From the NCBI RefSeq assembly GCF_030384885.1, contig NZ_CP128614.1: DNA of 64,000 nt; one strand, 5' to 3'. The position numbers and the translations under genes were made by a program. This DNA is from Escherichia coli. Its GTDB lineage: Bacteria > Pseudomonadota > Gammaproteobacteria > Enterobacterales > Enterobacteriaceae. How positions within the stretch are numbered: position 1 is the stretch's first letter; the number at the start of each line of letters is the position of its first letter. The notes beneath the pieces are model-generated. The model saw nothing but the letters and a program-made list of their open reading frames with translations, was not told where the DNA came from and searched no databases. This document shows positions 6,366 through 41,927 of this stretch, one piece after another.

Positions 6366-7474
6366 TGGATGAAAAAATTGTCCTGACGCGCCAGCAAATT
6401 TTAAGCTCTGCACTAAAAGTCAGCAAATGTCGCTCGCTCGTAAAAAGGCGCTTTCAGTCTTTGGGTTTAAAGTACGCAGATTCTCAGGAAGTTCGAGATC
6501 GGCTAACTAAGATAGAAAAAAACGCGTTTCATCATTTGGGAAAATTTTGTCAGAGCAACGATATCGATTCCCTATTCTCCATGGCAAATACCCTGTCTGA
6601 GCTTTTCCTTTTAAAGGGAGAGTTGATCACGACTGATCCCTTTGGGGACCGTGAAACCAGCTACTGGTCGGTACCACAAGGTTCATGCCATGAATGGATT
6701 CAATCGCTGACCACCAGCGAAGGTCCTGAACGTAAATTCGTTAGTTTCCGTATTTCTTTCGATAACAATGACGAACGGTGTGATCTTGTAAAGAAGAATG
6801 CCCGTATGCTTGGTTGTTATCTTTTGCCTTATTTCGTCGATTTGACACGCACGGTGGGCGCATTCATTAATTTGCCAGGTAGTGTCTCTTTTAAACAAGT
6901 ACAGCGCATCAAACCCCAGATTCATCCAGAAACAACACATAGTCATATAGTTACTATTGAGGACTCTCCCTTTCTTTCTCGGTTAAAATTTAAAATCATT
7001 ACTGCCATAGATCGGCTTCCTGACCCTAATGGCCTTTATACAAACACCTTTAACAGCATTATTGACCGTGCACTGCTGACTCATCTCAAAACCGAACAGG
7101 AAAAAATAGATAGTCCAAGAGTCTGCAAAAATGTGATTTCGGCTTTTGCCGACTCAACTCTTTCTCTGCCGGTGTTTAACATCGGCCTAAACGAGCAGTA
7201 CAGATACTGGACGCCGTGGGGCATCAACTTTATAGAATTTTCCCGCCAGGCCGCAAAAGTAAGGACCGCTGTATTTGTTCCTGATGTGGGACAGATCGAG
7301 TGGAAAAGCGCAGAGCATAAAGAACTGGCGGAGTTAAGCCTCATCGACCAAATCATACCTAAACAGTACCACTGGCTCCTGGGTATCCCGACGATGTGGC
7401 GTAACAACTATTGCAATCACGATCAGAGGCTAGCTCTTTTTCGTGAATGGAGGGAAAGCAATGGCTGCGGATAA
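6362..7474 (+). CDS. hypothetical protein of the transfer module
   Basis: 370-aa ORF overlapping the traD stop by 4 bp; no motif recognised. Confidence 0.5.
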   Translation: MMDEKIVLTRQQILSSALKVSKCRSLVKRRFQSLGLKYADSQEVRDRLTKIEKNAFHHLGKFCQSNDIDSLFSMANTLSELFLLKGELITTDPFGDRETSYWSVPQGSCHEWIQSLTTSEGPERKFVSFRISFDNNDERCDLVKKNARMLGCYLLPYFVDLTRTVGAFINLPGSVSFKQVQRIKPQIHPETTHSHIVTIEDSPFLSRLKFKIITAIDRLPDPNGLYTNTFNSIIDRALLTHLKTEQEKIDSPRVCKNVISAFADSTLSLPVFNIGLNEQYRYWTPWGINFIEFSRQAAKVRTAVFVPDVGQIEWKSAEHKELAELSLIDQIIPKQYHWLLGIPTMWRNNYCNHDQRLALFREWRESNGCG

Positions 7475-8123
7475 TACAAGCAGAGCAGCAGTGCTCAGAA
7501 CAATGCTTTTTTTTGGCATGGTCATTTATTTTGGTTACAGCCTGGCTTTCCAGAATACTGAGGAGCTCAAATATCAGATTACTCAGGAGGTTAATGCAAG
7601 CCGGTCCATCATATCAAATGACCGTTGGAAGTCTGTTATTGCAAATAGTGAAGCGACTTTAAATTGGTTGGTACATGACTATAAGTTAATTGACTATCTG
7701 AATACTATTCTGATCCCTGACACCAAAAAACCAGCCAGAGGTATTAACATTGTTGCTGAAAAATTTACCTCTATTAATTACACTATGGCCAAAAACATAC
7801 CCCTCTTACTTTATCAGTCCATTTTCCGGTGGAACTTAATCCTGGGGTGGCTAATCGTTTTTCTGCCCTATCTATTTGCCATGCTAGCAGATGGAATGTA
7901 CCAGTGGAAATTGAAGAGGTACGTATTTGGTAAGGTTACAGTTCAGTTTTATCGTATTTGGTTTCGAGCATTTTGGGTGATCAGTGCTTTAACGATGGTC
8001 TACCTGGTCATGCCGAATATGTCACTATTTAACAATATCGCTCAACTTTTCCCACCAGTCGCTTTATTGATACTGGGAATTGCATTGAATCGCTTGTGGT
8101 CTAACTTTCAAAAACTCATGTAA
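7443..8123 (+). CDS. integral membrane protein
   Basis: 226-aa ORF with several long hydrophobic segments (e.g. LRTMLFFGMVIYFGYSLAF, LILGWLIVFLPYLFAML); overlaps the upstream gene. Confidence 0.5.
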   Translation: MNGGKAMAADNTSRAAVLRTMLFFGMVIYFGYSLAFQNTEELKYQITQEVNASRSIISNDRWKSVIANSEATLNWLVHDYKLIDYLNTILIPDTKKPARGINIVAEKFTSINYTMAKNIPLLLYQSIFRWNLILGWLIVFLPYLFAMLADGMYQWKLKRYVFGKVTVQFYRIWFRAFWVISALTMVYLVMPNMSLFNNIAQLFPPVALLILGIALNRLWSNFQKLM

Positions 8124-8133
8124 AGGTGGTCAG

Positions 8134-9315
8134 ATGTTAAGCAGTAAAAAAAGGAAGTCCCCTACAAATATCAAAGAATCGCTCAATGATAACGCTGACC
8201 GTTTTTATAAGATGTTTCGCATTCATACCACGGCAAAAGTTGCTATGTCGCTAATTGCCATGACCGCTGTAGGGTTTTCTTTCTACAATCTTTACGAACA
8301 ATGGCAGGACGCTGAAGGGAAGAAAGACCATATAGCTGTAATACGGATTTCTGGCGAGATGGGTACCGGCTCGGAAACGGGCGATGGAACAGTGATCGCA
8401 ACAGCTCTTGCCAAAGCTTACAATAATCCCCATGCCAAAGCAGTTATTATCGAGGCAGAGTCAGGTGGTGGTGGTCCCTCTGACGCCATCATTATTTACC
8501 GCCAGATAAACGCGCTTAAAAACCACCAGCCACAGATTGAACGCGTATCAGATGCCGGTTGCTCTCTTTCATCTGTAGCCGCTGACAAGAGTAACAAAAC
8601 CGGGAGCACAGAACGTGGCGATGAAGCACGGTCGAAGCAAAACTCCCTCGAAGTACTCTCCAGCGGTACCGGTCGTTTTTTCTCTGATATCGCAGACTCA
8701 TATAAACCAATCATCGTTAGTGTGAAAGGCATATGCGCATCCGCATGCTATTACGCGGTATCGCCCGCTGATGCAATTTATGCCGACAGTAATGCCCTGA
8801 TCGGTTCTATCGGTGTGCGTATGGACCACTGGAATCTGTCAGAGATCATGAGCACAGTAGGCGTCAAGAATGAGCCCCTTACGGCCGGTGAGTTCAAAGA
8901 TGCTCTTGACCCCTTCCACCCATTGTCCGATTCAACGAGGGAGTTCATGCAGAAGGAGATCCTGAACACGATGCATGAAAAATTTATAACTGATGTTGAA
9001 CTTGGACGGGGTAAAAAGCTTCTCTCGCGTCATGATGCCGATGCTGTTTCTCTCTATTCAGGCCGTGTATGGCCAACACCTCAGGCAGTTAAGTACGGCC
9101 TGGTGGATGGAGATCTTACGTCAGTAGAGATCCGTACACGTCTTTCAAAAATGTACTCCACTGACACGTTCAAAAACTACAATGAGCCTCATCGTAATCT
9201 CCGTTCTGCACTCGGCATGCTGATGAGCCTGTCTTCAAATATTGAGAGCCTTACCGGTACCACTACCCGCTTGGTAGAATCTGTTAATGCCACCAGCTAC
9301 CCCTCTGTGAGGTAA
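8134..9315 (+). CDS. S49-family (SppA-like) serine peptidase
   Basis: 393-aa ORF; N-terminal membrane anchor; segment GICASACYYAVSPADAIYADSNALIGSIGV resembles the signal-peptide-peptidase catalytic region. Confidence 0.55.
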   Translation: MLSSKKRKSPTNIKESLNDNADRFYKMFRIHTTAKVAMSLIAMTAVGFSFYNLYEQWQDAEGKKDHIAVIRISGEMGTGSETGDGTVIATALAKAYNNPHAKAVIIEAESGGGGPSDAIIIYRQINALKNHQPQIERVSDAGCSLSSVAADKSNKTGSTERGDEARSKQNSLEVLSSGTGRFFSDIADSYKPIIVSVKGICASACYYAVSPADAIYADSNALIGSIGVRMDHWNLSEIMSTVGVKNEPLTAGEFKDALDPFHPLSDSTREFMQKEILNTMHEKFITDVELGRGKKLLSRHDADAVSLYSGRVWPTPQAVKYGLVDGDLTSVEIRTRLSKMYSTDTFKNYNEPHRNLRSALGMLMSLSSNIESLTGTTTRLVESVNATSYPSVR

Positions 9316-9316
9316 C

Positions 9317-10048
9317 ATGGATGCTTTCAATCTGCTGTGGAGCATTACGGGGGTAGCTTTCATTATCCTTATTTTCGTCGTGTTGCTGTGTCTGTTGGGT
9401 TTTATGACCTCTGCCATAGCGGAACGGCGGACTGCAAAGGCAATTGAATCTGGGCTTCCTGAAGAAGCTCAGGGGCTACTTAGTGATCTCACCTTTCAGT
9501 TGTCGGCTCATAGCACTACTCAGGTTGATCACATTCTCGTAGCCCCACATGGTATATACGTCATAGAGCAGAAAAACTACGTAGGCAAGCTCTACGGTAC
9601 TCTGGAGGAAAGCCACTGGCGGAAATGGACTCAGTCCCGAACCCTCAAGTTGCAGAACCCGTTTAAGCAAAACCAGGGGCACATCAGGGCTATTCAGTCT
9701 GCTCTTAAGGCTAGAGAACTGGAATGTATCAATGTCGTCATCATAAACGGACGTTGTAAGTTTGATGGCATCAAGCCGGAATGGTTATGTATGGGGATGG
9801 ACGATTTTATCCATAAAGTCAAACAACGACGAGGGCTACGGTTGTTCACACCGGAGTCTGTTCAGCACATCTGTTCGGTGTTGAAGTCAACAAGGAAGTC
9901 GCCAGGGCTCTATACGGACCTTACTCATATTCACAACATAACGACAAAGTACAAAGCCCCGATGAAATTCGAGCAACGAGTAACATACATTCTGCTCAAC
10001 TTTATCCATTATCTGTGGGCAAGTCTGTTCACTAAGCAGAAGCCTTAG
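9317..10048 (+). CDS. NERD-domain protein (predicted nuclease-related)
   Basis: 243-aa ORF; N-terminal TM helix then HILVAPHGIYVIEQKNY...HWRKW, matching the NERD signature as recalled. Confidence 0.55.
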   Translation: MDAFNLLWSITGVAFIILIFVVLLCLLGFMTSAIAERRTAKAIESGLPEEAQGLLSDLTFQLSAHSTTQVDHILVAPHGIYVIEQKNYVGKLYGTLEESHWRKWTQSRTLKLQNPFKQNQGHIRAIQSALKARELECINVVIINGRCKFDGIKPEWLCMGMDDFIHKVKQRRGLRLFTPESVQHICSVLKSTRKSPGLYTDLTHIHNITTKYKAPMKFEQRVTYILLNFIHYLWASLFTKQKP

Positions 10049-10086
10049 CGCTCTATCATTGGTAAGGCTGTAAAATGTCTGCAAAA

Positions 10087-10120
10087 GGCCCCATCGGTAA
10101 ATTGTTGGGGCTTTTTCTTT
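10087..10120 (+). terminator. rho-independent terminator after the transfer operon
   Basis: GC stem GCCCCA...TGGGGC followed by TTTTTCTTT, about 40 bp after the NERD gene stop. Confidence 0.6.
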
Positions 10121-10334
10121 GCGTAGTTCTGATACGGTTTATCCTGTGGAGCATTATGGCCACCAGCCAGCTGGTGACTGGCCAACGCTTTGTATGACGT
10201 AGCCTACTCAGGGCAGGCTATTTTAGAGGGACCGATTTTTATCCGGGCTAATTTAGAAAGAGATAATTTGAACTTAGGCGGGCTGACCACCAGCAGAGAG
10301 GTAAATCACTAGCCGGTGATATTGACAGAAGTCG

Positions 10335-10697
10335 TCAGGGGTTTAACGCCGGAATATTTTGCCAGGCCTCCTGCAAGGTCTGCAAGACTTCTACAAGTGA
10401 TAGTGACGGCCACAGGACTGTTTCCGTCATTATCACTCCAGGTGGCTCGCACTCTACTGGTACCAGAATTAAAACAACACGAGTTCCTTTTACCTGGTAG
10501 GCAAGGTTTACTGCCGGTTGGCGGTAGGAGGCCAGTACACCCTCACCATATTGAGCAGGGTTACTTGCCCAGTTCCGCACCATTGCATACACCTGAGGCA
10601 TATACCGACTATCCAGATCCCCTTTGGGCCGTCTGAACGGCACGATTTCTTCTGAGCGGTAGGTGGTCGTTGTTGTATTGGTTGTCATCTTTGTCAC
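10335..10697 (-). CDS. hypothetical protein
   Basis: 120-aa ORF preceded by a strong RBS (GGGGAGGTG); Thr-rich N-terminus; likely start is the internal ATG. Confidence 0.4.
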   Translation of the reverse strand: MTKMTTNTTTTTYRSEEIVPFRRPKGDLDSRYMPQVYAMVRNWASNPAQYGEGVLASYRQPAVNLAYQVKGTRVVLILVPVECEPPGVIMTETVLWPSLSLVEVLQTLQEAWQNIPALNP

Positions 10698-10753
10698 CTC
10701 CCCTGTTCGTCCATTTAGAGTTTTAAGCTGCTTTACACATCACACTCAACTGA

Positions 10754-11038
10754 TTATTTAAGCTGGTCATCGTCTCTGGCCAGCATAGCCCAACCATTCG
10801 ACTGGTTTTCGCGGGAGTAAGGATTCATTTCAAAATAACTATCTACCGCGTCGCTGTCCGCAACAGAACTGTTGTTAGCTCTCTTTGAACCCTGAACCAC
10901 TACAGCATCAACCTCTGCGGCTTTCCCGTTGCGCTGTACCAGGATTTTAACCGTCTTGGGCTTACGTCTTGCGAGCAGTTTGTTGGCGATAAAAAGCACA
11001 ACAATCCAGGCCAAAAGCACGTATAAAAATTTATTCAT
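10754..11038 (-). CDS. small membrane-anchored protein
   Basis: 94-aa ORF with one N-terminal TM helix (FLYVLLAWIVVLFIANKLL) and a basic juxtamembrane patch; palindromic motif 164 bp upstream. Confidence 0.45.
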   Translation of the reverse strand: MNKFLYVLLAWIVVLFIANKLLARRKPKTVKILVQRNGKAAEVDAVVVQGSKRANNSSVADSDAVDSYFEMNPYSRENQSNGWAMLARDDDQLK

Positions 11039-11201
11039 AATGCCCTCCTTTGTATGTGATTATTATACCTGCTTCCATTGCAGGCCAAACAGGTTCGGTG
11101 TATGAAAAATAGACTTCTCTCCGGCGTATAGCAATCTACTTACTGATCTGTTTTCGTATCAAACTGTATGGCATAACCGAGGGGCGTACGTGGTGAGTCA
11201 G

Positions 11202-11212
11202 AAAGTTACTTT
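11202..11212. promoter_or_regulatory. palindromic motif AAAGTTACTTT, copy 1
   Basis: exact 11-bp palindrome, 164 bp upstream of the minus-strand gene starting at 11038. Confidence 0.55.
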
Positions 11213-11394
11213 TCCGTAATAGTTAATTTCAGATCCTTCTTCCAGTTACGCTTCAGTATAAAACCGATACCCTCTAATTCAGCATCCTTCACGTTTAATA
11301 CGCTTCACTTTAAGGCAGGGCTTTTCGGTTGATATGAATTCTTTTTCCGGTTGCTGGACATGGGTTTCATCCTGATAGTTAAAATTGCAGGCTA

Positions 11395-11697
11395 TCAGTC
11401 ACCACCACCACCTCCTCCTCCTCCTCCTCCACCGCCACCATCACAACCACCAGCTATGCTATTTTCACCATTACAATCACCTCCGAGGGGGTTCAAATGG
11501 CTGCTCCCCTGTAGATGGTGTCCTTGCCAGATCGAACCCGAACCAGCGCCTCCTGAGCGTCTTTGCTTGCCCTGAGGCAATTGTGCAGGCTCACCAGCAC
11601 CGGCGGTCCCAAAAATGTCCCGGGCAATTTTATAAAGAAGGTAAAAAGGTACGCCCAGCATCATAAAAAAGATTACTGAAAATATTACACGTTCCAT
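11395..11697 (-). CDS. small membrane protein with C-terminal poly-glycine tail
   Basis: 100-aa ORF; N-terminal TM helix then a Gly-rich tail ending GGCDGGGGGGGGGGGGGD, encoded by a (GGN)n / (CCT)6 triplet repeat; plus-strand ORFs over the same repeat read as poly-Pro or poly-His, so the coding strand is uncertain. Confidence 0.35.
   Translation of the reverse strand: MERVIFSVIFFMMLGVPFYLLYKIARDIFGTAGAGEPAQLPQGKQRRSGGAGSGSIWQGHHLQGSSHLNPLGGDCNGENSIAGGCDGGGGGGGGGGGGGD
11399..11440. repeat. triplet simple-sequence repeat, (CCA)3(CCT)6 on the + strand
   Basis: caccaccaccacctcctcctcctcctcctccaccgccacc read directly. Confidence 0.8.
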
Positions 11698-29578: not shown

Positions 29579-30145
29579 TTATTCGTTTTGTTTCTGTTCG
29601 TTATACTGCTCAAACCAGAAGACGACCGGTTTTACTACAATATGAAGCAAACCAAAACGTTCTGCGGTACGGAAATTCACGCTATATGCGCGAGCCCGTT
29701 CAACCTGTTTGGTAATTTCATTTCTCATTCCTTCAACACTAAAAGCTCCTTTAAAAAGGTTGCAGGGAGCGCATGATGGAAATAAGTTTTCTATTGCATG
29801 CAGTTCAGGGTGCATAACCTTACCCGTACTTCGGGCAACATGAGTTACGCCGCTGCCGACCGGGGCTCTCACCAGTTCAAAGTCGCGTCGAACAGGCTCA
29901 ACATGATCGGCATGCCACCCTTTTTCAGGAAGCTTGCAACCACAATAGGCACAACGCCCCCCAAATTTCATTCGCAGCTCAGCTCGCTGTATTTTAGAGA
30001 TCTTATTTTTAGGTTTTGAGAACCTACCATCAGGTGATTCCGCTTTGGATAACTTTGCTGAGGGCTCAGGTAACTCAACTAAATTCCCGTTGATATTTAT
30101 CACCTTGACCATATCATTTTCCGCCTTTACTAATCTCACGGGCAC
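29579..30145 (-). CDS. HNH endonuclease
   Basis: 188-aa ORF with CAYCGCKL...WHADHVEPV...NLFPSCAPCN (CxxC, H-x-DH, CxxCN), a classical HNH motif arrangement. Confidence 0.6.
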   Translation of the reverse strand: MPVRLVKAENDMVKVININGNLVELPEPSAKLSKAESPDGRFSKPKNKISKIQRAELRMKFGGRCAYCGCKLPEKGWHADHVEPVRRDFELVRAPVGSGVTHVARSTGKVMHPELHAIENLFPSCAPCNLFKGAFSVEGMRNEITKQVERARAYSVNFRTAERFGLLHIVVKPVVFWFEQYNEQKQNE

Positions 30146-31220: not shown

Positions 31221-33176
31221 TTATACGACCTGCCTGACCATCCTCATCAGAAGGCGGTTTAACAGTCCTTTCGCTGTCGGGCGATTGCTATCGACATAGT
31301 AAAAACCTGTTTTGGTCGTACCGTGAGCACTGCTCAGCACCCTCAGTTCCCAGATAACGTCACGGATAACGCCGCCATTTTCTGGCTTAAGGCATTCAGA
31401 TAAATGGCGCATGAAACGAGCTCTTACGGCACGGTAATAGCGGAACTCCTCTGGCTGGTTAGTATTTTCTTTCACCCGGAGTCGCTGGTTACACAGAGTT
31501 AGAACTGCATCCATCATTCCCGCCTTCAGCTTCGCCTGGATCGCACCTTGTTGCTGTTCCCTCTCACCTTCGAGTAACGTTAAGATTCTTTCTCCGAGTG
31601 CCGTCTTGTTGTGTACGTGCAACTGTACACAGGCAGCTACGCATGCCCAGAATCTGAACTTTTTTATCTGTCCACGCAATTTCCGGGCTACAACCTGACG
31701 GTATGCAGTATCGCTGAGTATTTTAAAACGCCGACTGGCAACCAGCTCTGGAAGCGACACTCTTTCGCCTATCCCCAGGCGGGAAAAGGTTTGTCCCCGT
31801 TGTGCGAGACGATGATAGACAGCGCCCTTCCCTTTTGAAATTCGGACCGCGCCATAACGAAGAAGATACTGAGCAGCAGTCGTTGGAGTAAACTCACCGT
31901 CAGCGATGCTCTGGCGTAACCCGTCGTATTCATGCCAGATAATCCAGGACGCCGTATCTTCTTCAACAGTCAGCTCATCCTCTTCCTCGAATGCCACGAC
32001 GACAGAACTGCTCTCTCCGGTCTTTAGGCTACGTGAAGCCCTGGGGTCAGCCTGCCCGTCAAAATAGGTCATCAGCGGCAACGTATCAGTCAGTCCATCA
32101 TAAGCTGTACCGAACCGGCCTCCGGGCAGTTTCATCCAGAGTGGAGCTGGCATTGGTGTACGGGCCACAGGCAGCATGTCAGGCTCATCCTCAAGAAGGT
32201 CCAGATCGGCCTCTTCCCAGACTCTGCGATAGATCTCAATTGCCCGAAACGGGCGAGGGTTGAAACAGTGCAACGACCAGAGGAAATCAACGTGGATCAC
32301 GTTTGCTTCATGTACAAGCCGAAATTGTGGCTCAGCCATACGACGGTTATAAGCCGTATCGTCCACCTCGCCGGAAAGTAGCTTTCTGCGATGCTTTGCC
32401 GCACGTCTGGCTTCAACATAATCAAGGCTGCAACAGACATGAAAAAGACGTTCAGTCAGGGACGAAGAAAAGATATTGGGTTGAAGACGCACATACCCGC
32501 CTTCGAACACTTTACGACCGATATAATCCCGCAGGCTCCAGTCGTACTGGATCTTAGAAAGAAATCGCTGAAGACGACTTAGGCCTGCCTGATAACCATA
32601 TTTCTCAGGGTCAGTGCGAAGGAGCGTTTCCATTGAATGGTCAACCCCTACGGCTGTGCAAAGCGAGCACCCATATCTAGCCCCACAAGCTGAGGTTCGC
32701 GTGGGTTTCTCCGGCGACCAGATACACTCTCCGGTGGCGTCTTTATAAAGCGTTGCCAGGCTGAAGTTATCCGGCATAAAGCTTGGTAAAGGGAAGCGGG
32801 ATTCGGAACCACAGGCCATTAGAAAAGACCAGATGTCCTGAGTGCGCCACTCCTTTACTGGATAGAGTTCACCACCGTGCTCAGTCAGGGTTACTTTCCT
32901 CGCCTGCCCTCCCATTTTGAGGATATTTCCGGCCCTTCGGGCACTTTCATCATCCCTGGAGCCCAGCATCAGGCATACCCTGCTTCGTACGGATGCCGGG
33001 GCGTTTTTTAGATAACGAGCTTTGGCCTTGCGCAGGGGGGCGATTTTGTAGTCACAAACTACTACCACACTGTTACAGTGTAGAAATTCTGGAAGGCGGT
33101 GCCAGTGTTGGTTTAGGATAATGTTAACAATTTTTCCAGAGTTTTCAGAGAAAAGAGATTTTGAGTGACAAACCAC
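31221..33176 (-). pseudogene. PAPS-reductase-family (DndC/IbrA-like) gene lacking its N-terminal P-loop region
   Basis: 651-aa ORF with GSRDDESARR, EWRTQDIW and CGARYGCSLC motifs of the PAPS-reductase fold but no SGGKDS P-loop; in-frame stop 6 codons upstream of the annotated GTG start (read directly), so the N-terminal part is not encoded here. Confidence 0.5.
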
Positions 33177-33418
33177 TGATGTTTTCCAGAATCACTTTCT
33201 CTTAGAAGATCGATAAAGTCTGTCTATGGGGAGGATCGTCTCCCAGGGTGAAGTCAGTCCACTTCACCGAGTTGCTTCCCCATCGGTGGGTTCTTCAAAA
33301 GGGCAACATGGCCGCCCTCCAGAGGTGAACGTACCTTATGCCTATGTACCAAGCCTTAGATTCCTGATAGTTCTAAGGGCGAGAAATAGCAAACTTACTT
33401 GAAAATTGACTCTGAAAT

Positions 33419-34525
33419 TCAAGCTTCAGCTAGAATAAACTTCCGTTGCTCATCTTCGCATTTATAACATGCGAAATATTTGATTGTTTCCATATCACCA
33501 GTCACATACTCATCACAATGTGGACAGTTAACTGCTGACCATCCTCTATCAAAGCATGAAACACAACTCCACTGACCTTCAATATAGAAAACTGAATTTG
33601 GAGCGTGCTGACATACGTGACAACCAGCGACACATTCGCCACCTTCCTCCCACCAATCATCACCCGTTACATATATGTCGCGACACAATTTTATTAAGAT
33701 ATTTGTGGTGATCTCATGAGCACATTGTGGACATTTATTGATGTCAGGACTGAAAAATTCGAATGGTACTTTACAGTTTGGGCAAGGCAAAGTATCAGTG
33801 ACTTGCTCTACCGCAACGCCCTGCGATTCGCAAACAAGACATTCATAATCATCTCCCCATTTATGAGTATCATTAACTTTACCGGCTTCAAGGCCACATT
33901 GACGGCACTTAACTATTTTAATTTTTTTTAATCTTAAGACGTCAATTTCCTTTGAAAGCTCATTGAATCGGGTGCTGAGGAACTCTTTTTGTTGCAGCAT
34001 TCTCTTATGCACACGCTCAAACTCTTCCTTAAATTTAATAAATTCATCTTTCCATTCAATAGTGAGTAAATTATATAAATGGTGCCATGAAGACCATTGT
34101 TGAGCTACAACCCCTGCTTTATTAGCTTGAGCGCTTGAATATCCAGTGTGTGCAAAGTGAACAATTTGGTTCCTATGCGCACCTAACGTTCTGAACTCAT
34201 CAAGGATACTGTCATCAAGTTTAATGCCAATAACAGTTTTAAGACGTTGAACAGCGTCACTAAAATACACAGAATTAAAGTCACCAACGCTAAATTTTTG
34301 TTTATTAGCTTTGCCAGGATCATCTAATATTAAAGTCCAATGTTCGAGCATTAACCTTGCTTTTAAGAAAAGTTCAATGGCTGTATAGAAATCAACAATC
34401 GAATTTTTGGGTCTTATATTTAAATCATCAATTGACGACTCAAGAAAATCTATAGCATTTATCACTAAAGAATCAAAAAGTTGTTCATTGCTCTGTACTG
34501 TTTGCTTAATGTATGTGCGTGCCAT
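33419..34525 (-). CDS. multi-Cys zinc-ribbon protein, unknown function
   Basis: 368-aa ORF; helical N-terminal half; C-terminal half has at least six CxxC pairs (CRQC, CLVC, CPNC, CPQC, CHVC, CVSC, CPHC, CYKC); very AT-rich coding sequence. Confidence 0.5.
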   Translation of the reverse strand: MARTYIKQTVQSNEQLFDSLVINAIDFLESSIDDLNIRPKNSIVDFYTAIELFLKARLMLEHWTLILDDPGKANKQKFSVGDFNSVYFSDAVQRLKTVIGIKLDDSILDEFRTLGAHRNQIVHFAHTGYSSAQANKAGVVAQQWSSWHHLYNLLTIEWKDEFIKFKEEFERVHKRMLQQKEFLSTRFNELSKEIDVLRLKKIKIVKCRQCGLEAGKVNDTHKWGDDYECLVCESQGVAVEQVTDTLPCPNCKVPFEFFSPDINKCPQCAHEITTNILIKLCRDIYVTGDDWWEEGGECVAGCHVCQHAPNSVFYIEGQWSCVSCFDRGWSAVNCPHCDEYVTGDMETIKYFACYKCEDEQRKFILAEA

Positions 34526-35023
34526 AATGCCTCTTGATTATATTGCCCTTCGAATGTTGAACATTATATCTTTAGAGGCAATATTTTGTCACATCCCACG
34601 ATATTTTGGAGCTGAATTATTTGATCAGGCTTACACAATCTTTCTTCTCTATCCCCATTTACCTTTTGCTCTGTTACCTGCGTTGAAATGGTTGATGACC
34701 CACTAATACTGTACTCTGCCTCTTGTATAAATACATTTCAACATAAGATTGGCAAAGTAATCCTCCATAGTAGCTGCTTGAGTGGTTGATTGTCGGAATA
34801 GTGCATAGCCATTTTGGTCAGCAGAAAGCGCTGTTACCGAATGACTTGATCGTAGTACGTGTCTACTCGCCTACCAGAACTGCTGTCCTCTCATCAACTA
34901 TCTGTATAGGACCATTTGAAACATCAGATATATTTTCAGAAATCTCCTGTTAGCGTGATGGTGACTATCTTAGCTGAGAAGGATTACGAATATATTCTTA
35001 CATCATATTCTTTGAGGTGAAAG

Positions 35024-36247
35024 CTATCTATAATTTTCCAGATAGCAAGTGTCTTTGAATGCATTATAATTGCCAATTTCTTGGTTTATTTCAATTTCAT
35101 AATCTAAGCTGACAATAGGTATTTCAACACCATTTAATAAAAGAGACTCTTGATTTTTCTTCCATTTTTTGTTTTCATTCCATGCTAATTCACTTTTGTT
35201 CTCGGGGTCTCCCATTACTTCAATTTTGATACCTTTTAAAGTAAATGTACAATAAAATGATTTGATGTTTTCTGATGTGGTTTTAAACAACTCCCCTTTG
35301 ATACCAGGGTTGATTAACTTGCATATTTCATTAGCCCCTTTCTCCGTTGTTATGATATCAATATCATTTGCATAAATTTGAACGCCTTGTAAGTACCTAT
35401 TAGCCCCACCAGTTATACTCCAATCCTCCTCAATCGGTTGGAGTAATAATGTTAATTCTGTAATTGCGTCGATCAATTGTTTGCTTTGAAAGTTATTTTT
35501 ATTATAAAGCCGTTGAGCCCAGGTTTGTTTTATTTGCATACTGTGTTTTAAATAAATTGCATTATTAATGCTTGGAGCTGTAAATATCTCATGTTCGTAT
35601 TTAGAATATATGTAAGATAGATATTCTGGTGCTTTGCGATTATTAATCTCTATGAATCCATCTATTTTTTTCATCTCATTGTGGGCGTTGAAAAAACCTG
35701 ACACTTCTGAGAATAAATTATAGAAATTATTTATGACTAGCATCCCAAATATGGCGCGGCTATACTGAAAATCTAAATTATCAGTCAGCGTGGTATACAT
35801 AATAATAATTATACTAACTAGTAGTAGTATTGTTAGTAATAAATAGAATAACTTCTGCTGGAAAGCTTTAATATATAAGATAGAGTTCCAGTATGCATTC
35901 TCTTGTATGAGTGTTATTAACCTCTCTGCACGAAAGCCATTTTTATTTTCCGCATTACCATCAATGTAGAGTCGCTCTCGGTAAAAATTTTCCTCGCCTA
36001 TAATACCTCTCAGCATTTCTAATCTTTTTGTTTCTATAGCCTTAGCTGCATACGAAGTTTTAAAATGCATTGCAAACCAAGTGAGGAGTTGTATTATAAA
36101 CGTGAGGGTTGCAATACCGTAGAGCCAATGAGAATTCAAAAAAATCCCGACGATCGATAAGCAGGAAATCATTAATGTTGAATAACTGATAGACTTAGAT
36201 AAAAAGTCAACTCTATCAAAATAAAAACTACTGTTTTTTGATTCCAT
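35024..36247 (-). CDS. membrane-anchored predicted nucleotidyltransferase (4TM N-terminal domain fused to a Pol-beta-like NTase)
   Basis: 407-aa ORF; about four TM helices in the N-terminal 180 aa; C-terminal ITGGANRYLQGVQIYANDIDI fits the minimal nucleotidyltransferase motif hG[GS]-x(9-13)-DhD; AT-rich. Confidence 0.5.
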   Translation of the reverse strand: MESKNSSFYFDRVDFLSKSISYSTLMISCLSIVGIFLNSHWLYGIATLTFIIQLLTWFAMHFKTSYAAKAIETKRLEMLRGIIGEENFYRERLYIDGNAENKNGFRAERLITLIQENAYWNSILYIKAFQQKLFYLLLTILLLVSIIIIMYTTLTDNLDFQYSRAIFGMLVINNFYNLFSEVSGFFNAHNEMKKIDGFIEINNRKAPEYLSYIYSKYEHEIFTAPSINNAIYLKHSMQIKQTWAQRLYNKNNFQSKQLIDAITELTLLLQPIEEDWSITGGANRYLQGVQIYANDIDIITTEKGANEICKLINPGIKGELFKTTSENIKSFYCTFTLKGIKIEVMGDPENKSELAWNENKKWKKNQESLLLNGVEIPIVSLDYEIEINQEIGNYNAFKDTCYLENYR

Positions 36248-36582
36248 TTCTCTATCTTGCTCACTTTTTTTTGTATTTTTACATACGAATTGACAATGTC
36301 AAGATGTAGGGGGAATAATTTGTTCATAACGCATGGGGAGTAAATAGTTCCTATGAACCAATCATGTCATGATTTTCCACATAACGTGGTGTCAACTACA
36401 AGGCATAATAATCTCAGACATTAGTTCGGATGCTTGTCTCGTAAACTCGAGCTTAAACTTTTAATACTTTAATTGTTATGGCTCAGTCGTTACTGAGAAA
36501 GCTAATTTTGTAAAATAACCACCTACCTTACAGGTGCTAACGGATGCGCAAGCCATTGAATTATCTGGAAAATTCAATGAGT

Positions 36583-37053
36583 TCAATGATTATTTTTTTC
36601 TTCTAATTTTTTTATGACATTCCCATGCTTTTTACCACACCATGCTTGTTTCCTACCCATAATAAGCAAAACCATTGGCTCGGTCGCTTTCAGTCCGGTT
36701 CGCCAAGACCTTAGATCAGTACTTGATGGCTGTGGGAAATCTTCGGGATGCGTATGCCATTCGCCCAAATAGACTAGAAAACCGTCTGATTGCTGAAATA
36801 AGTCATCCACTTTTTGCTGGTGATGTTTGCTTTTTCTTTCTATTCGTAATCGCGATCTTATATCACCTGCGCCTGGTTCTGATATGTGGGTGATGACAAT
36901 GTGTTTCCCACGACGTTCTCCAATAAGGATTCCTCCTGCCTCGGTACTGGCATGATGTAATTGACGATATAAATACAACCGCTGCACAACATCACTCATG
37001 ATGACGACATGATTGTAATCATCATCGATAAAAACTAACTCAGTTATGTTCAT
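36583..37053 (-). CDS. cap3: CBASS Cap3 (JAB/JAMM isopeptidase)
   Basis: 156-aa ORF with EWHTHPEDFPQPSSTD (HxHx7Sx2D JAMM motif); overlaps the cap2 stop by 14 bp. Confidence 0.75.
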   Translation of the reverse strand: MNITELVFIDDDYNHVVIMSDVVQRLYLYRQLHHASTEAGGILIGERRGKHIVITHISEPGAGDIRSRLRIERKSKHHQQKVDDLFQQSDGFLVYLGEWHTHPEDFPQPSSTDLRSWRTGLKATEPMVLLIMGRKQAWCGKKHGNVIKKLEEKNNH

Positions 37054-38809
37054 TGCAGATAGGACAGTTAGGCTGATGTGGCAAAAACTGAGGTTTCAGT
37101 GAACGTCCACCTTCTAACATATGCTCGTTGTAAGTCCATTTGAGGTCAGGCTCAAGAGTACTCAAGACTGCCTGTTGAGCCAAAGATGCCGTTATATTAC
37201 TCACCGCCGCATCATAAGATGTGTATGTGCTACCACAACTTTTATTTTTTTCACTTGAGATATCGAGGTTGTAAAATCGGGAATCGATACCATTATGGTA
37301 TTTTGCTGGATTAGTAACCATACATCCATAGCAGCTTCGGCCATCATCGATTAAAACTTTGGATGCTCGTCCATTACCATCATTGAAGGCGTGGATAATA
37401 ATAGGTCTTTGCTCACAGGGAATCTGTCTTACGATAGCCGCAATACGCTTGGAAACAGGAGGTCGACCTGTTGCATCGATAATAATGTCATATTTTTTCA
37501 TAACATCAATACTGATGGGGAATTGCTTATAAAATCCTTCTACTCTGGTCTGTAAATGCACAGAGTCTTGAAGTTTTGTTGCGAGTGAGAGCGCTTTGGA
37601 CCACCCAAAATCATGTGAAGGTAAAATGTGACGACCAAAATTACTAGGACGGTAGATATCATCATCAAATAAATGCAGTAAACCTTTCCCACAACCGGCA
37701 CCGTTTCGGAGTAACAATTCTGCAATATACCCACCAATGGTTCCGCAACCAACTAAAGCTATACGCTTATCGGATAAGCATTCTTTGCTTCTCCTTTGGG
37801 CATTTCGGCTAAGGAGGGTTGCCATATCAGCGCGAACCACACCCAATCGTTTATATGAGGCGCATACATTTTTACCAGCTAACAATGTGGCAAGTTTGGA
37901 CGTTGATTTTTTAGCTGATCTCTTGTGCCTTCTGAAATCAACAGCGTTAGTATTTAACTCAATATAGATGGCAAATATATCTTGATTGAAAATGTCGAAT
38001 AAAAAAATATATCTTTTCTTCCCCTCTGTTGTGATGTAGTGAACCACTCTGTCCCTGGCATTATGGTCCGCATTTTCTAGCCAGTCCAGTAATTCGCGGA
38101 ATGAAGTCGGTGGCCATTTCATCCCAGCAAGACGATTAGGGTTTACAGAAATATAATGAGTGTTGATAGAATAATTTTTCAAAGATTCTTGACGAAGGTA
38201 TCTTTGATTAAGCCATTTTTTTAAAATGGTTTCAGAGTCCTCGGGAGAGGATTCTTGGACAGTTATATATTCTAGCCTGGGAGAACCATCAGGAAATGTT
38301 GACTCTGAAAACAGTGTCTTAAGTCTGATCCCGCGGCTTGCTTTTGATAAAATATATAAACTATCACTAGGTCGCCAGTAAGTTGCAAATTCACCTTCGA
38401 GTTCTCTCTTATCATTCAGGCCATTAGTAGCGGCTAAAACTGAATTAATCAGTGTTCGGTGAATCTGGGCATCGACTTCTTTGTACGTACCCTCAAGGTT
38501 GTTTGGATCCCAATCAGCTTCCAACTGCTCTACATAACAGAGAATTCCTTCTTGGCTTATGTGAGGCATAAGGCGATCTCTGAACTTTTCAGGCAGATCA
38601 ACTATGCAAGCTAATGGCAGTTCCGTAAAAGGATCTGGCCGAATAACTAGTGCTACATTGAAATTTCCGGCTTCGGTTTCATATTCTTTCGTATAATAGC
38701 CTTTCAGGCGTTCCTGACTGTGTAGGAACGCCTTTTCAGGAAGTTTGCGGGCTAGCGTATAGCGATACCCGCACTCTATCATCATTTTATGGAGCCTTCC
38801 TTCCTCCAT
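37040..38809 (-). CDS. cap2: CBASS Cap2 (E1/E2 ubiquitin-like conjugation enzyme fusion)
   Basis: 589-aa ORF; Rossmann/ThiF-like ALVGCGTIGGYIAELLLRNGAG in the C-terminal half; start overlaps the CD-NTase stop. Confidence 0.75.
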   Translation of the reverse strand: MEEGRLHKMMIECGYRYTLARKLPEKAFLHSQERLKGYYTKEYETEAGNFNVALVIRPDPFTELPLACIVDLPEKFRDRLMPHISQEGILCYVEQLEADWDPNNLEGTYKEVDAQIHRTLINSVLAATNGLNDKRELEGEFATYWRPSDSLYILSKASRGIRLKTLFSESTFPDGSPRLEYITVQESSPEDSETILKKWLNQRYLRQESLKNYSINTHYISVNPNRLAGMKWPPTSFRELLDWLENADHNARDRVVHYITTEGKKRYIFLFDIFNQDIFAIYIELNTNAVDFRRHKRSAKKSTSKLATLLAGKNVCASYKRLGVVRADMATLLSRNAQRRSKECLSDKRIALVGCGTIGGYIAELLLRNGAGCGKGLLHLFDDDIYRPSNFGRHILPSHDFGWSKALSLATKLQDSVHLQTRVEGFYKQFPISIDVMKKYDIIIDATGRPPVSKRIAAIVRQIPCEQRPIIIHAFNDGNGRASKVLIDDGRSCYGCMVTNPAKYHNGIDSRFYNLDISSEKNKSCGSTYTSYDAAVSNITASLAQQAVLSTLEPDLKWTYNEHMLEGGRSLKPQFLPHQPNCPICNEHN

Positions 38810-40110
38810 CAGCCGCTTACCATCGTGGTGTTAATTTTTACAGGCGCCTGCTCCTTAGACGGGGAGATTTGAAATGCAGGAGCCGCAGCAATTGAAGTTA
38901 TTAACGAGGCATTAGTTACTCGTTTTCCAAACGCATTGTTTATCTTACGTAATGCTTCTTCCCTGCTACTTGAACTCTCTGCATCAAGCAAAATCCCCTC
39001 TAAATTTCTCATGGTTTCAACGATGGTTCTCTGATGTACGTTATGATCGCATTCGGCAGGGAAAAGTAACTTTTCATCAGTATCGTCGGGACTTTCCAGA
39101 CCGCGACAGAATTCATTAGGTAGTAATCTTGCAACTAGTTTCATCGTCCCTGTGAGGTCTGAACCATTATGTGCTTCTCTGTCGAGGATGTTTACAACTG
39201 CAGCCATCAGGCTAATAGATGAAGGACCTCCCACTTCCCATTGGGCATCTCTCCAGGCCTTCATAAAGCGGCAAATTGAACGGAGATGACCGCCAATACG
39301 CTTGCAACTATCATTAAACCAATCTTCAACAATTTTGGGGTCGCTGATCGACCACCTTCTTGCACCCTGACGCAGCGCTAAATTAACTTTGTCAGGTTCT
39401 ACTAGATATGCCTCGCGCATATCCATGTTTGCTGATAAAGACTCGAACATGGAGTCGGCACTTTTTATGATGTGTGCTGAATCGGCTGCAGTTTGTTTGG
39501 TCTGAAATTGCTCTTTGGGGATCGCATACATCGGTACGTCGATGTGTGTTTTCTCGTGAGGAATTTTGATGCGTCCGCAGGTGTTTTTTTCTTCATATAC
39601 CCATCCATCGTTTTCAGCCTCTAACGATTTCAGTGACGTATCAACGAGCAGAAGAAGTAAGGTGTGCCCAATACTGGGTTCGGATTCAAAGACCGTCATT
39701 GGCATGTAGGTGCCGTCATCGATATCCATTTCCTGACCCGGGTGAAAAGGTCTGTTTAACGTATCGTATTGAAAACTCCCTTGGGTCCAGAAGCGAGGTT
39801 GAAATTTGATGAAGTCATCACGAGCTACATCTTCCATTTCAAAAATGAGTCGAGCGAGAGTCTCACGGTCTGAGGGAGAGAGGTAGCGAACATTAGTTTG
39901 CTCCAGTTTAAATCTAACGCTTTCAAGCGTCAGAGTTTGCTTTCTGGCGTCTGTAGCAATTTGACGAGCTTCTTTAAACACATCCCTCGTTCTTTCACGG
40001 ACTTTCTGGCGAAGTGCTTTCAGTTTGTCGGATTCAGTCTTACCCAATTTTAGTTTACTGATTAAGCCATCCACACTATGGCTGTAGTAATTGTTAAAAT
40101 CCCAACGCAT
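38809..40110 (-). CDS. dncV: CD-NTase, DncV-like cyclic dinucleotide synthase
   Basis: 433-aa ORF; NTase motif QGSFQYDTLNRPFHPGQEMDIDDG; long stretches match Vibrio cholerae DncV as recalled (MRxxWNFxxYY N-terminus, RFWTQGSFQYDTLNRPF, C-terminal NxAFGxRVTN...STMVSG). Confidence 0.85.
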   Translation of the reverse strand: MRWDFNNYYSHSVDGLISKLKLGKTESDKLKALRQKVRERTRDVFKEARQIATDARKQTLTLESVRFKLEQTNVRYLSPSDRETLARLIFEMEDVARDDFIKFQPRFWTQGSFQYDTLNRPFHPGQEMDIDDGTYMPMTVFESEPSIGHTLLLLLVDTSLKSLEAENDGWVYEEKNTCGRIKIPHEKTHIDVPMYAIPKEQFQTKQTAADSAHIIKSADSMFESLSANMDMREAYLVEPDKVNLALRQGARRWSISDPKIVEDWFNDSCKRIGGHLRSICRFMKAWRDAQWEVGGPSSISLMAAVVNILDREAHNGSDLTGTMKLVARLLPNEFCRGLESPDDTDEKLLFPAECDHNVHQRTIVETMRNLEGILLDAESSSSREEALRKINNAFGKRVTNASLITSIAAAPAFQISPSKEQAPVKINTTMVSG

Positions 40111-41180
40111 CAGTGGATCTCCTGCGCATTCATGCGCTTAAAGGGTTTTGCGGGAGTAGTGAAAAAATTCTTAAGCTTCTGATCTTGAGCGAACTCAACA
40201 TTGGCGAGCTGCCTTCCCCTTGCGCTTAAATTTTCAAGGGAACTCTTCGTGGCATTATCCAGGGTGATATCACTGGCTGCTTCATTGGGGATAATTTCAT
40301 CCAGGTAGATGTAGTTATCCACCGCGTCATGGAGCATAAGCTCACGCTGTAGCATATTTTTATGAAGATGCTGGTTAGCTGTCATGGTTGTAAGCACCAG
40401 CCGTTTTCCCATACCCCAGAGACGACAGTAGCCATTCCACCATGTTTTGCTCAACAACTTTGGACTAAGTGAATACTCTTCACCAACAGTACCGATATTA
40501 AGTATATGTATGTCTTTATGGGTGACGCTGAAGTCAGAATTCATATCCCTGAAAACTTCCAGAAGTCCTATGTAGCTGGGGTTGTTTGCGACCAGACCAC
40601 CATCGGCAAAATATGCGCGGAGATCCTCACAATAGTGTGGGGAAAAATACGTTGGCGCGGCTGAGGTTGCCAGTGCGGCATCTATCAATTTAAGAGGCCC
40701 ATCACGAGTAAAATCTGGGTTGTGTGGTGTCTTGAAAAACTGCGGTTTTCCTGTTGAAAGGTTTACTGCCGGGATCATTACTCGCCGGGTTAGGTCATTG
40801 AATGTGGTTTCAGCCCCAATCATTTCTTGAATTGTTTCGCGAAGAGGATGGCTGCGGTAGATAGGAGCACAAAGTGATCTAAGCAAGTTGGTCAGGGACC
40901 ATCTTTTGGGAAAAATGTCATTCGCCCTATCGAAGAACACTCGTTCCAGCTCACGGGCACTTTTTCCTGTAGCAAGGCCGAGAGCTAATATGCCGCCTAT
41001 TGATGTCCCTGTAATGAGGTCAAAATAATCGCCAATTTTAATATCCTGATTAGGGTATTTGCTGGCAAGTATCCTCTCAATCTCAGAAAGGACACTGATC
41101 GTAAACATTCCCCTGGCCCCCCCGCCATTAAGACTTAGTATCCGCACGCCATAGTGATTTCCTGCACTTATGTCAGACAT
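40110..41180 (-). CDS. capV: CBASS effector CapV (patatin-like phospholipase)
   Basis: 356-aa ORF with patatin motifs GGGARG (oxyanion), GTSIGG (GxSxG nucleophile) and DGG; stop overlaps the dncV start. Confidence 0.85.
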   Translation of the reverse strand: MSDISAGNHYGVRILSLNGGGARGMFTISVLSEIERILASKYPNQDIKIGDYFDLITGTSIGGILALGLATGKSARELERVFFDRANDIFPKRWSLTNLLRSLCAPIYRSHPLRETIQEMIGAETTFNDLTRRVMIPAVNLSTGKPQFFKTPHNPDFTRDGPLKLIDAALATSAAPTYFSPHYCEDLRAYFADGGLVANNPSYIGLLEVFRDMNSDFSVTHKDIHILNIGTVGEEYSLSPKLLSKTWWNGYCRLWGMGKRLVLTTMTANQHLHKNMLQRELMLHDAVDNYIYLDEIIPNEAASDITLDNATKSSLENLSARGRQLANVEFAQDQKLKNFFTTPAKPFKRMNAQEIH

Positions 41181-41630: not shown

Positions 41631-41927
41631 TCACCATTTCTCCTGTCTGGCGGGCAAATTTTCCAAAGATTTATTCTCTCCCGACGGCATCATTTCTGAT
41701 GAATTTGCCATCGATGAAAGGCTGATTTCTACTCCCAGCACGGTAAACACTTTGAACAGGCGTTCAATACTCGCACTGGCTGGATTGGCCTCCAGACGAG
41801 CATAGGTTTGCTGGGTCACACCTAACCTTTCAGAGACGTCTTTTTGCGTCAGCCCATTCGCTTTACGAAAGCCAAGCAGCATTGGACGCAATTGGGTAAG
41901 TATTTTTATCGGATAAACATTTTTCAT
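41631..41927 (-). CDS. HipB-like XRE-family HTH regulator
   Basis: 98-aa ORF; LGFRKANGLTQKDVSERLGVTQQTYARLEANPASASIERLFKVFTVLGVEISL aligns with E. coli HipB as recalled; no hipA-like gene follows; lies 450 bp upstream of capV on the same strand. Confidence 0.6.
   Translation of the reverse strand: MKNVYPIKILTQLRPMLLGFRKANGLTQKDVSERLGVTQQTYARLEANPASASIERLFKVFTVLGVEISLSSMANSSEMMPSGENKSLENLPARQEKW

Follow-up and report, generated by a model that had tools for sequence, protein, structure and literature searches.

The window analyzed here (64,000 nucleotides of Escherichia coli contig NZ_CP128614.1, RefSeq assembly GCF_030384885.1) is part of an IncHI-type conjugative megaplasmid that encodes a MobH relaxase and TraD. 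Directly downstream of an operon for a type II CBASS (a system of signaling against phages that is based on cyclic oligonucleotides), it carries two genes on the minus strand: 35024-36247, whose 407-aa product fuses an N-terminal transmembrane (TM) domain to a C-terminal nucleotidyltransferase (NTase) domain, and 33419-34525, whose 368-aa product is, judged by a full-length profile match, a homolog of the known defense protein HEC-08. The explanation that we consider probable as a whole is that these are two independent single-gene modules carried as cargo of an IncHI-type plasmid defense island, and that the fusion gene encodes an uncharacterized membrane effector that needs no partner and is controlled by the NTase it carries. 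Such a protein may represent a new kind of cell-suicide switch, complete in itself and gated by a nucleotide; for the fusion, no family in PADLOC v2, NCBIfam (June 2026), or PHROGs provides coverage.

Domain architecture of the fusion protein

The C-terminal domain is, by profile and fold matches alike, a TM1012-like minimal NTase of the PF10706 superfamily with an intact G[GS]...DxD...[DE] motif. Its best Pfam match was PF10706 (ANT(2'')-like; residues 264-389), and a profile of 13 orthologs found TM1012 as its sole match in the PDB (E 6e-18); structure comparison gave TM1012, LnuA, and MenT as the best folds, with LnuA and ANT(2'') among the structural neighbors. The NTase motif GGANRYLQGVQIYANDIDI occupies residues 280-298 of the 407-aa protein, and the third acidic residue, E343, lies within an IEVMGD motif. 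Across 22-39 aligned fused and split relatives, G280, D295, D297, and S330 were invariant and position 343 was E or D; the domain is very probably an active enzyme. Cyclase hidden Markov models (HMMs) from PADLOC and NCBIfam did not match the 407-aa protein, nor did SMODS, and the CD-NTase LpCdnE was retrieved only at a Foldseek E-value of 0.5. Close homology to the antibiotic nucleotidyltransferases ANT(2'') and LnuA that included the substrate-binding region was looked for and not found.

In the AlphaFold model (pLDDT 87), residues 1-262 formed six long helices, an all-helical effector part. Kyte-Doolittle analysis identified strong hydrophobic segments at residues 19-37, 42-60, and 133-151, with an amphipathic fourth helix at ~160-183; the cytosolic residues conserved in this domain were E116, N117, N121, Y217, P225, Y232, and W243. 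Short connecting loops lacked K or R and the long connecting segments were rich in them; from this distribution and the hydropathy, the connecting segments, the C-terminus, and the NTase are predicted to be cytoplasmic. The PADLOC profile for the CBASS '4TM' effector (PDLC00724) matched residues 27-254 of the window protein weakly (E 7.9e-5) and more distant relatives over nearly the full length of the profile (E 9e-8 to 3e-17). Alignment of the N-terminal domain by hhalign with S_4TM proteins of the Pfam type (loci L002 and L020) was marginal (E 8e-5, covering TM4 and the cytosolic part), and that with SLATT_4 was not significant. The matches to PDLC00724 and to the S_4TM proteins point to homology between the membrane domain and a family of CBASS membrane effectors.

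An earlier note on this DNA, written without database searches, had described about four TM helices followed by an NTase motif, and hydropathy, the AlphaFold model, and the motif at residues 280-298 all bore this out. The NTase fold was recovered by structure prediction and comparison, and the PDLC00724 matches lent support to a kinship with CBASS 4TM effectors. Among the families that the note had proposed for profile searches, the CBASS 4TM effector gave a weak match, whereas SMODS, CD-NTase, Pfam S_4TM, and SLATT were unmatched and the NTase did not belong to the MNT family.

A conserved unit of TM effector and TM1012-like NTase

In a set of 5.8 billion proteins, the close orthologs of the fusion fell into 13 clusters (90% identity); they were 71-100% identical to it and all were from Enterobacterales mobile elements. 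A scan of genome contigs with alignment A4 matched only Serratia oryzae and one Symploca metagenome-assembled genome (MAG), and a scan of metagenome contigs recovered nine loci. An exhaustive profile search returned 541 relatives of three kinds. About 17 are additional full-length 4TM+NTase fusions, 17-40% identical; NTases that stand alone, 150-170 aa long, are numerous, and the 4TM domain occurs several times on its own, at ~273 aa.

The adjacency of the stand-alone forms was judged where their genomic context was readable. In the split form, an AIPR gene is followed by a 4TM gene (273 aa) and an NTase gene (159 aa; hhalign NTase probability 99.5%), the last two overlapping. Two metagenome assemblies (L012:115-3811 and L018:503-5126) carried three-gene operons in which the NTase swaps its fusion partner between versions: in one, a 526-aa protein with a C-terminal TM segment and no family match precedes a 4TM protein and an NTase-caspase fusion, and in the other a 525-aa protein precedes a 4TM-NTase fusion and a protein combining caspase and FGE-sulfatase domains. 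In a further form, the NTase gene overlaps the gene that precedes it, which encodes a 2TM protein of the SLATT_4 family (68.8 bits in NCBIfam against a cut-off of 55). This pattern of fused and split arrangements shows by comparative genomics that the conserved functional unit is a TM effector plus a TM1012-like NTase, not an NTase plus a zinc-ribbon protein, and that the coupling of the NTase to a TM part is obligatory. NCBIfam (June 2026) had no model for the fusion, its separate domains, or the split relatives, and PHROGs gave no match for the fusion.

The neighbors of the fusion gene varied over at least seven contexts on integrative and conjugative elements, plasmids, and a prophage cargo region, often beside other defense genes. 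The prophage example (L027:460-11134) is a 76%-identical ortholog at the cargo end, where tail genes and umuD/umuC-like genes are followed by the fusion gene, a 455-aa protein without assignment, and an integrase remnant. In Citrobacter sp. Cb043 (L004), a cyclic nucleotide monophosphate-binding regulator of the Crp family lies immediately upstream of the ortholog in the same orientation. In L015:4259-7288 and L016, the AIPR (abortive-infection, PF10592) gene immediately precedes the split 4TM and NTase genes, and the three may form one system.

Some of these contexts adjoin CBASS operons. In a neighbor-joining tree, the orthologs located after Cap3 of a type II CBASS formed one monophyletic group and those convergent with a type I CBASS of SMODS and S-4TM genes formed another, and the remaining branches had no CBASS nearby. 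The arrangement of the type I block stayed constant while its outer flanks changed (L002, L009, L023, L024, and L030). A third lineage was found in the cyanobacterial Symploca sp. SIO2E9 MAG (L020:7330-10450) and in two metagenome loci (L032 and L033) as a run of four co-directional genes. In L020, the first encodes a SMODS-like CD-NTase of 335 aa and the second an S-4TM-like protein of 301 aa; the third and fourth, which overlap, encode a 182-aa SLATT_4 2TM protein and a 164-aa TM1012-like NTase. The Symploca SMODS is a close relative of that from Klebsiella (phmmer 1e-98). In its layout this run resembles a type I CBASS with a second, attached pair of TM effector and NTase. Altogether, the TM+NTase module adjoins CBASS in three independent lineages among roughly a dozen independent contexts, a count with no background rate behind it, so that the adjacency is suggestive and not a statistic. 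The type II CBASS operon of the window may be functionally linked to the fusion gene as its partner.

Proposed switch and its alternatives

In the switch that we favor, an inner-membrane S-4TM-like effector domain and a cytoplasmic TM1012-like minimal NTase would act as two halves of one device. The NTase would turn nucleoside triphosphates (NTPs) or their deoxy forms into a nucleotide or oligonucleotide ligand, or would nucleotidylylate the protein itself; its product would control oligomerization of the 4TM domain and permeabilization or depolarization of the membrane, and this would abort phage infection. Two polarities can be envisaged, in which the product either opens the pore, as in CBASS, or keeps it shut until a phage removes the product, as in the guard systems Hailong and Panoptes. 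The repeated adjacency to CBASS and the lack of a sensor domain lead us to lean toward the guard polarity.

Several points weigh against a gated defense effector. The case for a role in defense draws on TM-domain homology, genomic context, and analogy. The fusion's own match to the 4TM HMM was weak (7.9e-5), hhalign to S_4TM proteins of the Pfam type gave a probability of 4% against a single sequence and 60% against a small alignment, and the window protein matched neither Pfam S_4TM (PF18159) nor Pfam SLATT. No solved structure resembles the membrane domain, so the term pore is inferential. The family is also very rare, with an ortholog in one of 100,044 species-representative genomes and in 11 of 72,556 plasmids, and no relatives were found in phage collections by tblastn of phage records or by a pattern scan of IMG/VR. 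At least five of the ~8 Enterobacterales ortholog contexts had no CBASS nearby. Finally, TM1012 (Thermotoga maritima; PDB 2EWR, 2FCL, and 4HX0; entries from 2005) is, to our knowledge, a structural-genomics protein with no described function, and it is a stand-alone soluble protein, whereas the window domain is tied to a membrane effector. The nearest characterized relatives of TM1012 adenylylate small molecules (LnuA, ANT(2'')) or tRNA (MenT) and not NTPs, so that signal synthesis is not implied by the fold.

The fusion is analogous to Hailong, Panoptes, and type I CBASS, and no evidence was found for its membership in any of them. Hailong was reportedly described by Tan and colleagues in Nature in 2025. 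According to published summaries, it comprises an ion channel, HalA, and an NTase, HalB, the product of which represses the channel (PMC13276650, PMC13275509). It thus partners a membrane effector with a small NTase, as the fusion does, and is a plausible precedent for a guard mechanism; however, no HalA- or HalB-like structure was among the fold matches listed for the fusion. The C-terminal tail of the fusion (...CYLENYR), checked with the conserved priming tyrosine at the C-terminus of the Hailong NTase in mind, varied among orthologs, some of which had no Tyr at that place.

Panoptes consists of OptS, an mCpol, and OptE, an S-2TM-beta protein, and is, like Hailong, a precedent for control of a TM effector by the nucleotide or DNA product of a partner polymerase. 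It is reported to lie immediately beside CBASS operons that encode a Cap2/Cap3-type conjugation system and, as effector, a patatin or S-2TM-beta protein; in these coupled systems, two TM effectors related to each other occur together (PMC11974786). The fusion likewise joins a putative minimal nucleotide synthase to a CBASS-type TM effector immediately beside CBASS (with patatin and Cap2/Cap3, or with an effector of the same class), a behavior seen in three lineages, though many contexts are not adjacent. However, its synthase is a pol-beta NTase and not a Cas10/GGDEF palm, and the effector is S-4TM-like (all-helical, with four TM segments) or SLATT_4 instead of S-2TM-beta.

One specific sub-version of the favored explanation, in which we place low confidence, is a CBASS guard like Panoptes or Hailong: the NTase would constitutively produce a nucleotide or oligonucleotide inhibitor to keep the 4TM pore shut, phage anti-CBASS sponges (such as Acb2/Acb4) or nucleases would remove this inhibitor and thereby set off the pore, and the gene would be tied functionally to the CBASS beside it. 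Consistent with this are the position of the module immediately beside CBASS in three independent lineages and two CBASS types, the absence of an obvious sensor domain from the minimal NTase, and the recurrence of both patterns of Panoptes adjacency (PMC11974786), patatin with Cap2/Cap3 in the window and an S-4TM CBASS with an S-4TM-like fusion in Klebsiella plasmids. In contrast, over half of the ortholog contexts have no CBASS within 7-10 kb, the NTase has a pol-beta fold and is not an mCpol, and the co-location may be mere clustering in defense islands, in a small sample with no background rate behind it. The wider proposal that the 4TM-NTase fusion and its split relatives (4TM or SLATT_4 plus TM1012-like NTase) make up a previously unrecognized guard class of defense is rather unlikely as it stands; if true, the class would be a third evolutionarily independent solution beside Panoptes (mCpol) and Hailong (HalB) and would account for the place of the module beside CBASS in both Enterobacterales plasmids and cyanobacteria. 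SLATT-based systems such as DRT10/UG17, which combines SLATT_5 with a reverse transcriptase, share with the distant NTase relatives that pair with an overlapping SLATT_4 2TM gene the theme of a TM effector and a polymerase; they differ in that the polymerase here is an NTase, not a reverse transcriptase, and in that the TM domain of the fusion has no significant hhalign match to SLATT_4.

The opposite polarity, in which the NTase would stay silent until infection and its nucleotide would then open the attached 4TM effector in cis, was judged unlikely. Type I CBASS with an S-4TM effector is said to consist of a CD-NTase/SMODS protein and an S-4TM protein, as reportedly described by Burroughs and colleagues in 2015 and Millman and colleagues in 2020. 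The fusion shares with it a four-TM effector domain related to PDLC00724, a pol-beta-fold NTase, and a setting in a mobile defense island, and could be seen as this system collapsed into one polypeptide, its N-terminal domain being homologous to the CBASS 4TM effectors that CD-NTase products activate. However, the NTase of the fusion is a TM1012-like minimal enzyme of 140 aa and not a CD-NTase, without the additional domains that serve CD-NTases in regulation and acceptor binding; instead of being a separate cyclase encoded upstream, it is either joined to the effector or the product of the gene right after that of the effector; and the fusion matches neither Pfam S_4TM nor SMODS. Nor was there a cyclase HMM match; LpCdnE was retrieved by Foldseek only at an E-value of 0.5, and a covalent 1:1 fusion of synthase and effector would allow no signal amplification.

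A membrane-anchored transferase with no part in defense, carried as plasmid cargo, is a minor rival that we hold to be quite improbable. It would be either an antibiotic NTase like ANT(2'') and LnuA or a LicD/fukutin-like phosphotransferase with an envelope or small-molecule substrate. The aminoglycoside 2''-adenylyltransferase family is the best Pfam match, LnuA and ANT(2'') are structural neighbors, resistance genes occur on the host plasmid type (pMY490-mcr-9), and Kuchta et al. (2009, PMC2794190) found TM1012 to be the template closest to fukutin and FKRP. What argues against it is that the TM domain is no simple anchor but a conserved module of 260 residues with homology to CBASS effectors, and that relatives have AIPR, caspase, SLATT_4, and CBASS genes as partners; moreover, the NTase is predicted to be cytoplasmic.

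Should the fusion act in defense as favored here, TM1012-like minimal NTases would be a further enzyme family within a growing theme, seen in CBASS, Pycsar, Hailong, Panoptes, and DRT10, in which the product of a partner polymerase gates a membrane effector. With synthase and effector in one 1.2-kb gene, this single-polypeptide system would be unusually easy to dissect, and natural split versions are at hand for trans-complementation. The repeated adjacency to CBASS also raises the testable question of whether CBASS signaling is guarded by more than one independent route.

HEC-08 and the plasmid defense island

The second gene matched the PADLOC HEC-08 profile (PDLC04162) over its full length (E 5.7e-70), residues 8-361 of the protein aligning with positions 7-354 of the 358 in the profile, and its product also matched phrog_37794 (E 2e-36). 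HEC-08 (Hma-embedded candidate 08) combines a DUF3644 HEPN domain with zinc-finger-like domains, and as a single gene with its native promoter it confers defense, which mutation of the HEPN histidine abolishes (Payne et al., 2024, bioRxiv 10.1101/2024.01.29.577857). The window protein has the same architecture from end to end (a HEPN domain of the DUF3644 type, the Rx4-6H motif, and zinc ribbons at the C-terminal side) and is likewise a single gene with its own promoter-like site; it differs in sitting in a plasmid defense island after CBASS and the 4TM-NTase gene and not inside an Hma system. On this homology it is a new locus of an already known single-gene defense and nothing new beyond that. 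By homology to the tested HEC-08, it would protect by HEPN-dependent RNA cleavage with R118 and H123 as catalytic residues, and the four zinc ribbons, a region with weak zinc-ribbon matches in Pfam and NCBIfam, are presumably the sensing or regulatory part.

HEC-08 followed the fusion gene only in a clade of at least 89% identity, comprising the window and five other loci (L003, L006, L022, L026, and L005, the last with a broken HEC-08). No HEC-08 accompanied the orthologs of Dickeya, Serratia, Pantoea, Citrobacter, and Mangrovibacter, nor those on Klebsiella IncF plasmids, in the cargo region of a prophage, and in an island with an integrase and restriction-modification genes. The two genes are 498 bp apart, the spacer contains no convincing open reading frame (ORF), and each gene has its own promoter-like site; a conserved pair of fusion and HEC-08 was accordingly rejected. 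Also rejected, as very improbable, was a type VII toxin-antitoxin pair of the HEPN-MNT kind, in which the NTase domain would nucleotidylylate and neutralize the downstream HEPN RNase: a HEPN protein does adjoin a minimal NTase as in HepT-MntA, the HEPN domain of HEC-08 is structurally like the HepT toxin SO_3166 (Payne et al., bioRxiv 10.1101/2024.01.29.577857), and another HEPN protein resembling DUF3644 (PDC-S64) is encoded 3.5 kb away from the ortholog in Citrobacter, but HEC-08 acts alone with no partner gene described by Payne et al., the adjacency is confined to the one clade, the spacer and separate promoter-like sites intervene, and the NTase belongs to the TM1012/ANT(2'') family (PF10706), not the MNT family, and is always coupled to a TM partner instead. 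The Citrobacter protein (Citrobacter sp. Cb043, L004) is PDC-S64-like and DUF3644/HEPN-related; positions 3629-4522 and 7100-7864 of L004 take in this protein and the Crp-family regulator mentioned above. In L005 (6963-8132), the HEC-08 homolog 3' of the 89%-identical fusion gene is broken into two ORFs (193 and 135 aa) and is probably a pseudogene.

Both ORFs were found where the earlier note had placed them, and they are the most AT-rich genes of the neighborhood: GC content was 0.320 for the fusion gene (0.316 at third codon positions) and 0.373 for HEC-08 (0.293), whereas the four CBASS genes have 0.41-0.46, the gene that follows downstream has 0.51, and the window as a whole has 0.446. 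Compared with relatives at 89-97% identity, dN/dS was 0.13-0.17 for the fusion gene and 0.12 for HEC-08; because this indicates purifying selection on both, they are real genes, and the possibility that these AT-rich ORFs are spurious was rejected given the conserved orthologs and these ratios. The position of the AT-rich pair immediately downstream of cap3, the CxxC-packed C-terminal half of the 368-aa protein, and the defense-island setting had all been recognized correctly, although the HEPN (DUF3644) N-terminal half had been missed. What the earlier note had called a pairing that it could not name finds no support, given that the zinc-ribbon protein is a homolog of a published single-gene defense, and the distribution and spacing reported above speak against both a conserved unit and co-transcription. 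Its suggestion of separate acquisition is answered in two parts, in that the GC steps fit a mosaic origin, whereas the type II CBASS, fusion, and HEC-08 genes now move as one block among IncHI plasmids. Because this block travels on large IncHI conjugative plasmids, plasmids such as pMY490-mcr-9 carry stacked phage defenses.

The closest sequenced match was Enterobacter cloacae plasmid pMY490-mcr-9 (NZ_CP053569.1, L021), with a 100% protein match to the fusion; megablast of the region against E. coli complete genomes gave no match, and an Rfam search of 33000-36800 found no family. The features of the region are collected in Table 1.

Table 1. Coordinates of annotated features in the window, with the evidence for each.
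Feature	Position	Strand	Evidence or description
Type II CBASS operon	36583-41180	-	PADLOC and NCBIfam matches, all above curated cut-offs
CapV phospholipase	40110-41180	-	Type II CBASS
DncV-like cGAMP synthase	38809-40110	-	Type II CBASS
Cap2 (E1/E2)	37040-38809	-	Type II CBASS
Cap3 (JAB)	36583-37053	-	Type II CBASS
Terminator-like hairpin and T-run between cap3 and fusion gene	36520-36536	-	Consensus match only
Promoter-like site for fusion gene	36275-36302	-	TTGACA-16-AAAAAT with upstream TG, ~28 nt before ATG; consensus match only
Fusion gene, S-4TM-like membrane domain plus TM1012-like minimal NTase, 407 aa	35024-36247	-	ORF; 13 ortholog clusters; dN/dS; AlphaFold pLDDT 87
N-terminal membrane domain, residues 1-262	35462-36247	-	Four predicted TM segments in long helices, then two cytosolic helices
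C-terminal NTase domain, TM1012/ANT(2'')-like, residues 264-407	35024-35458	-	Pfam, PDB profile, and fold matches
Catalytic signature hG[GS]-x12-DxD, G280-G281 ... D295-I-D297-I	35354-35410	-	Alignment of relatives
Promoter-like site for HEC-08 gene	34563-34592	-	GTGACA-18-TATAAT, 11/12 matches, ~38 nt before ATG; consensus match only
HEC-08 homolog, HEPN RNase domain plus four zinc ribbons, 368 aa	33419-34525	-	PADLOC HEC-08 PDLC04162
DUF3644-type HEPN domain, residues ~8-162	34040-34504	-	PADLOC DUF3644 E 1.7e-44 (residues 13-162)
Rx4H motif RNQIVH, residues 118-123 (R118-x4-H123)	34157-34174	-	Motif search
Eight CxxC pairs, residues 207-356	33458-33907	-	Enough for four Cys4 zinc ribbons

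Several further observations concern the surrounding genes. In pMY490-mcr-9 (L021 positions 7080-11537), capV, dncV, cap2, and cap3, all intact in the window, are fragmented in a record that is otherwise identical, and therefore none of them is listed in its gene table; the fragmentation reflects either sequencing frameshifts or real decay. At 31221-33176 on the minus strand, the window encodes a 651-aa protein with a DndC/PAPS-reductase-like segment (PADLOC DndC E 1e-17; far under the NCBIfam cut-offs); its GC content of 0.51 contrasts sharply with the adjoining AT-rich genes, and no other dnd genes are evident nearby. A 188-aa HNH-motif protein encoded at 29579-30145 (minus strand) is weakly similar to PtuB and to retron-associated HNH endonucleases (E ~1e-4). 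Upstream of CBASS, at 41631-41927 (minus strand), lies a HipB/Xre-like helix-turn-helix gene, placed similarly in L003 and in a Klebsiella oxytoca plasmid (L022), which may regulate the CBASS operon.

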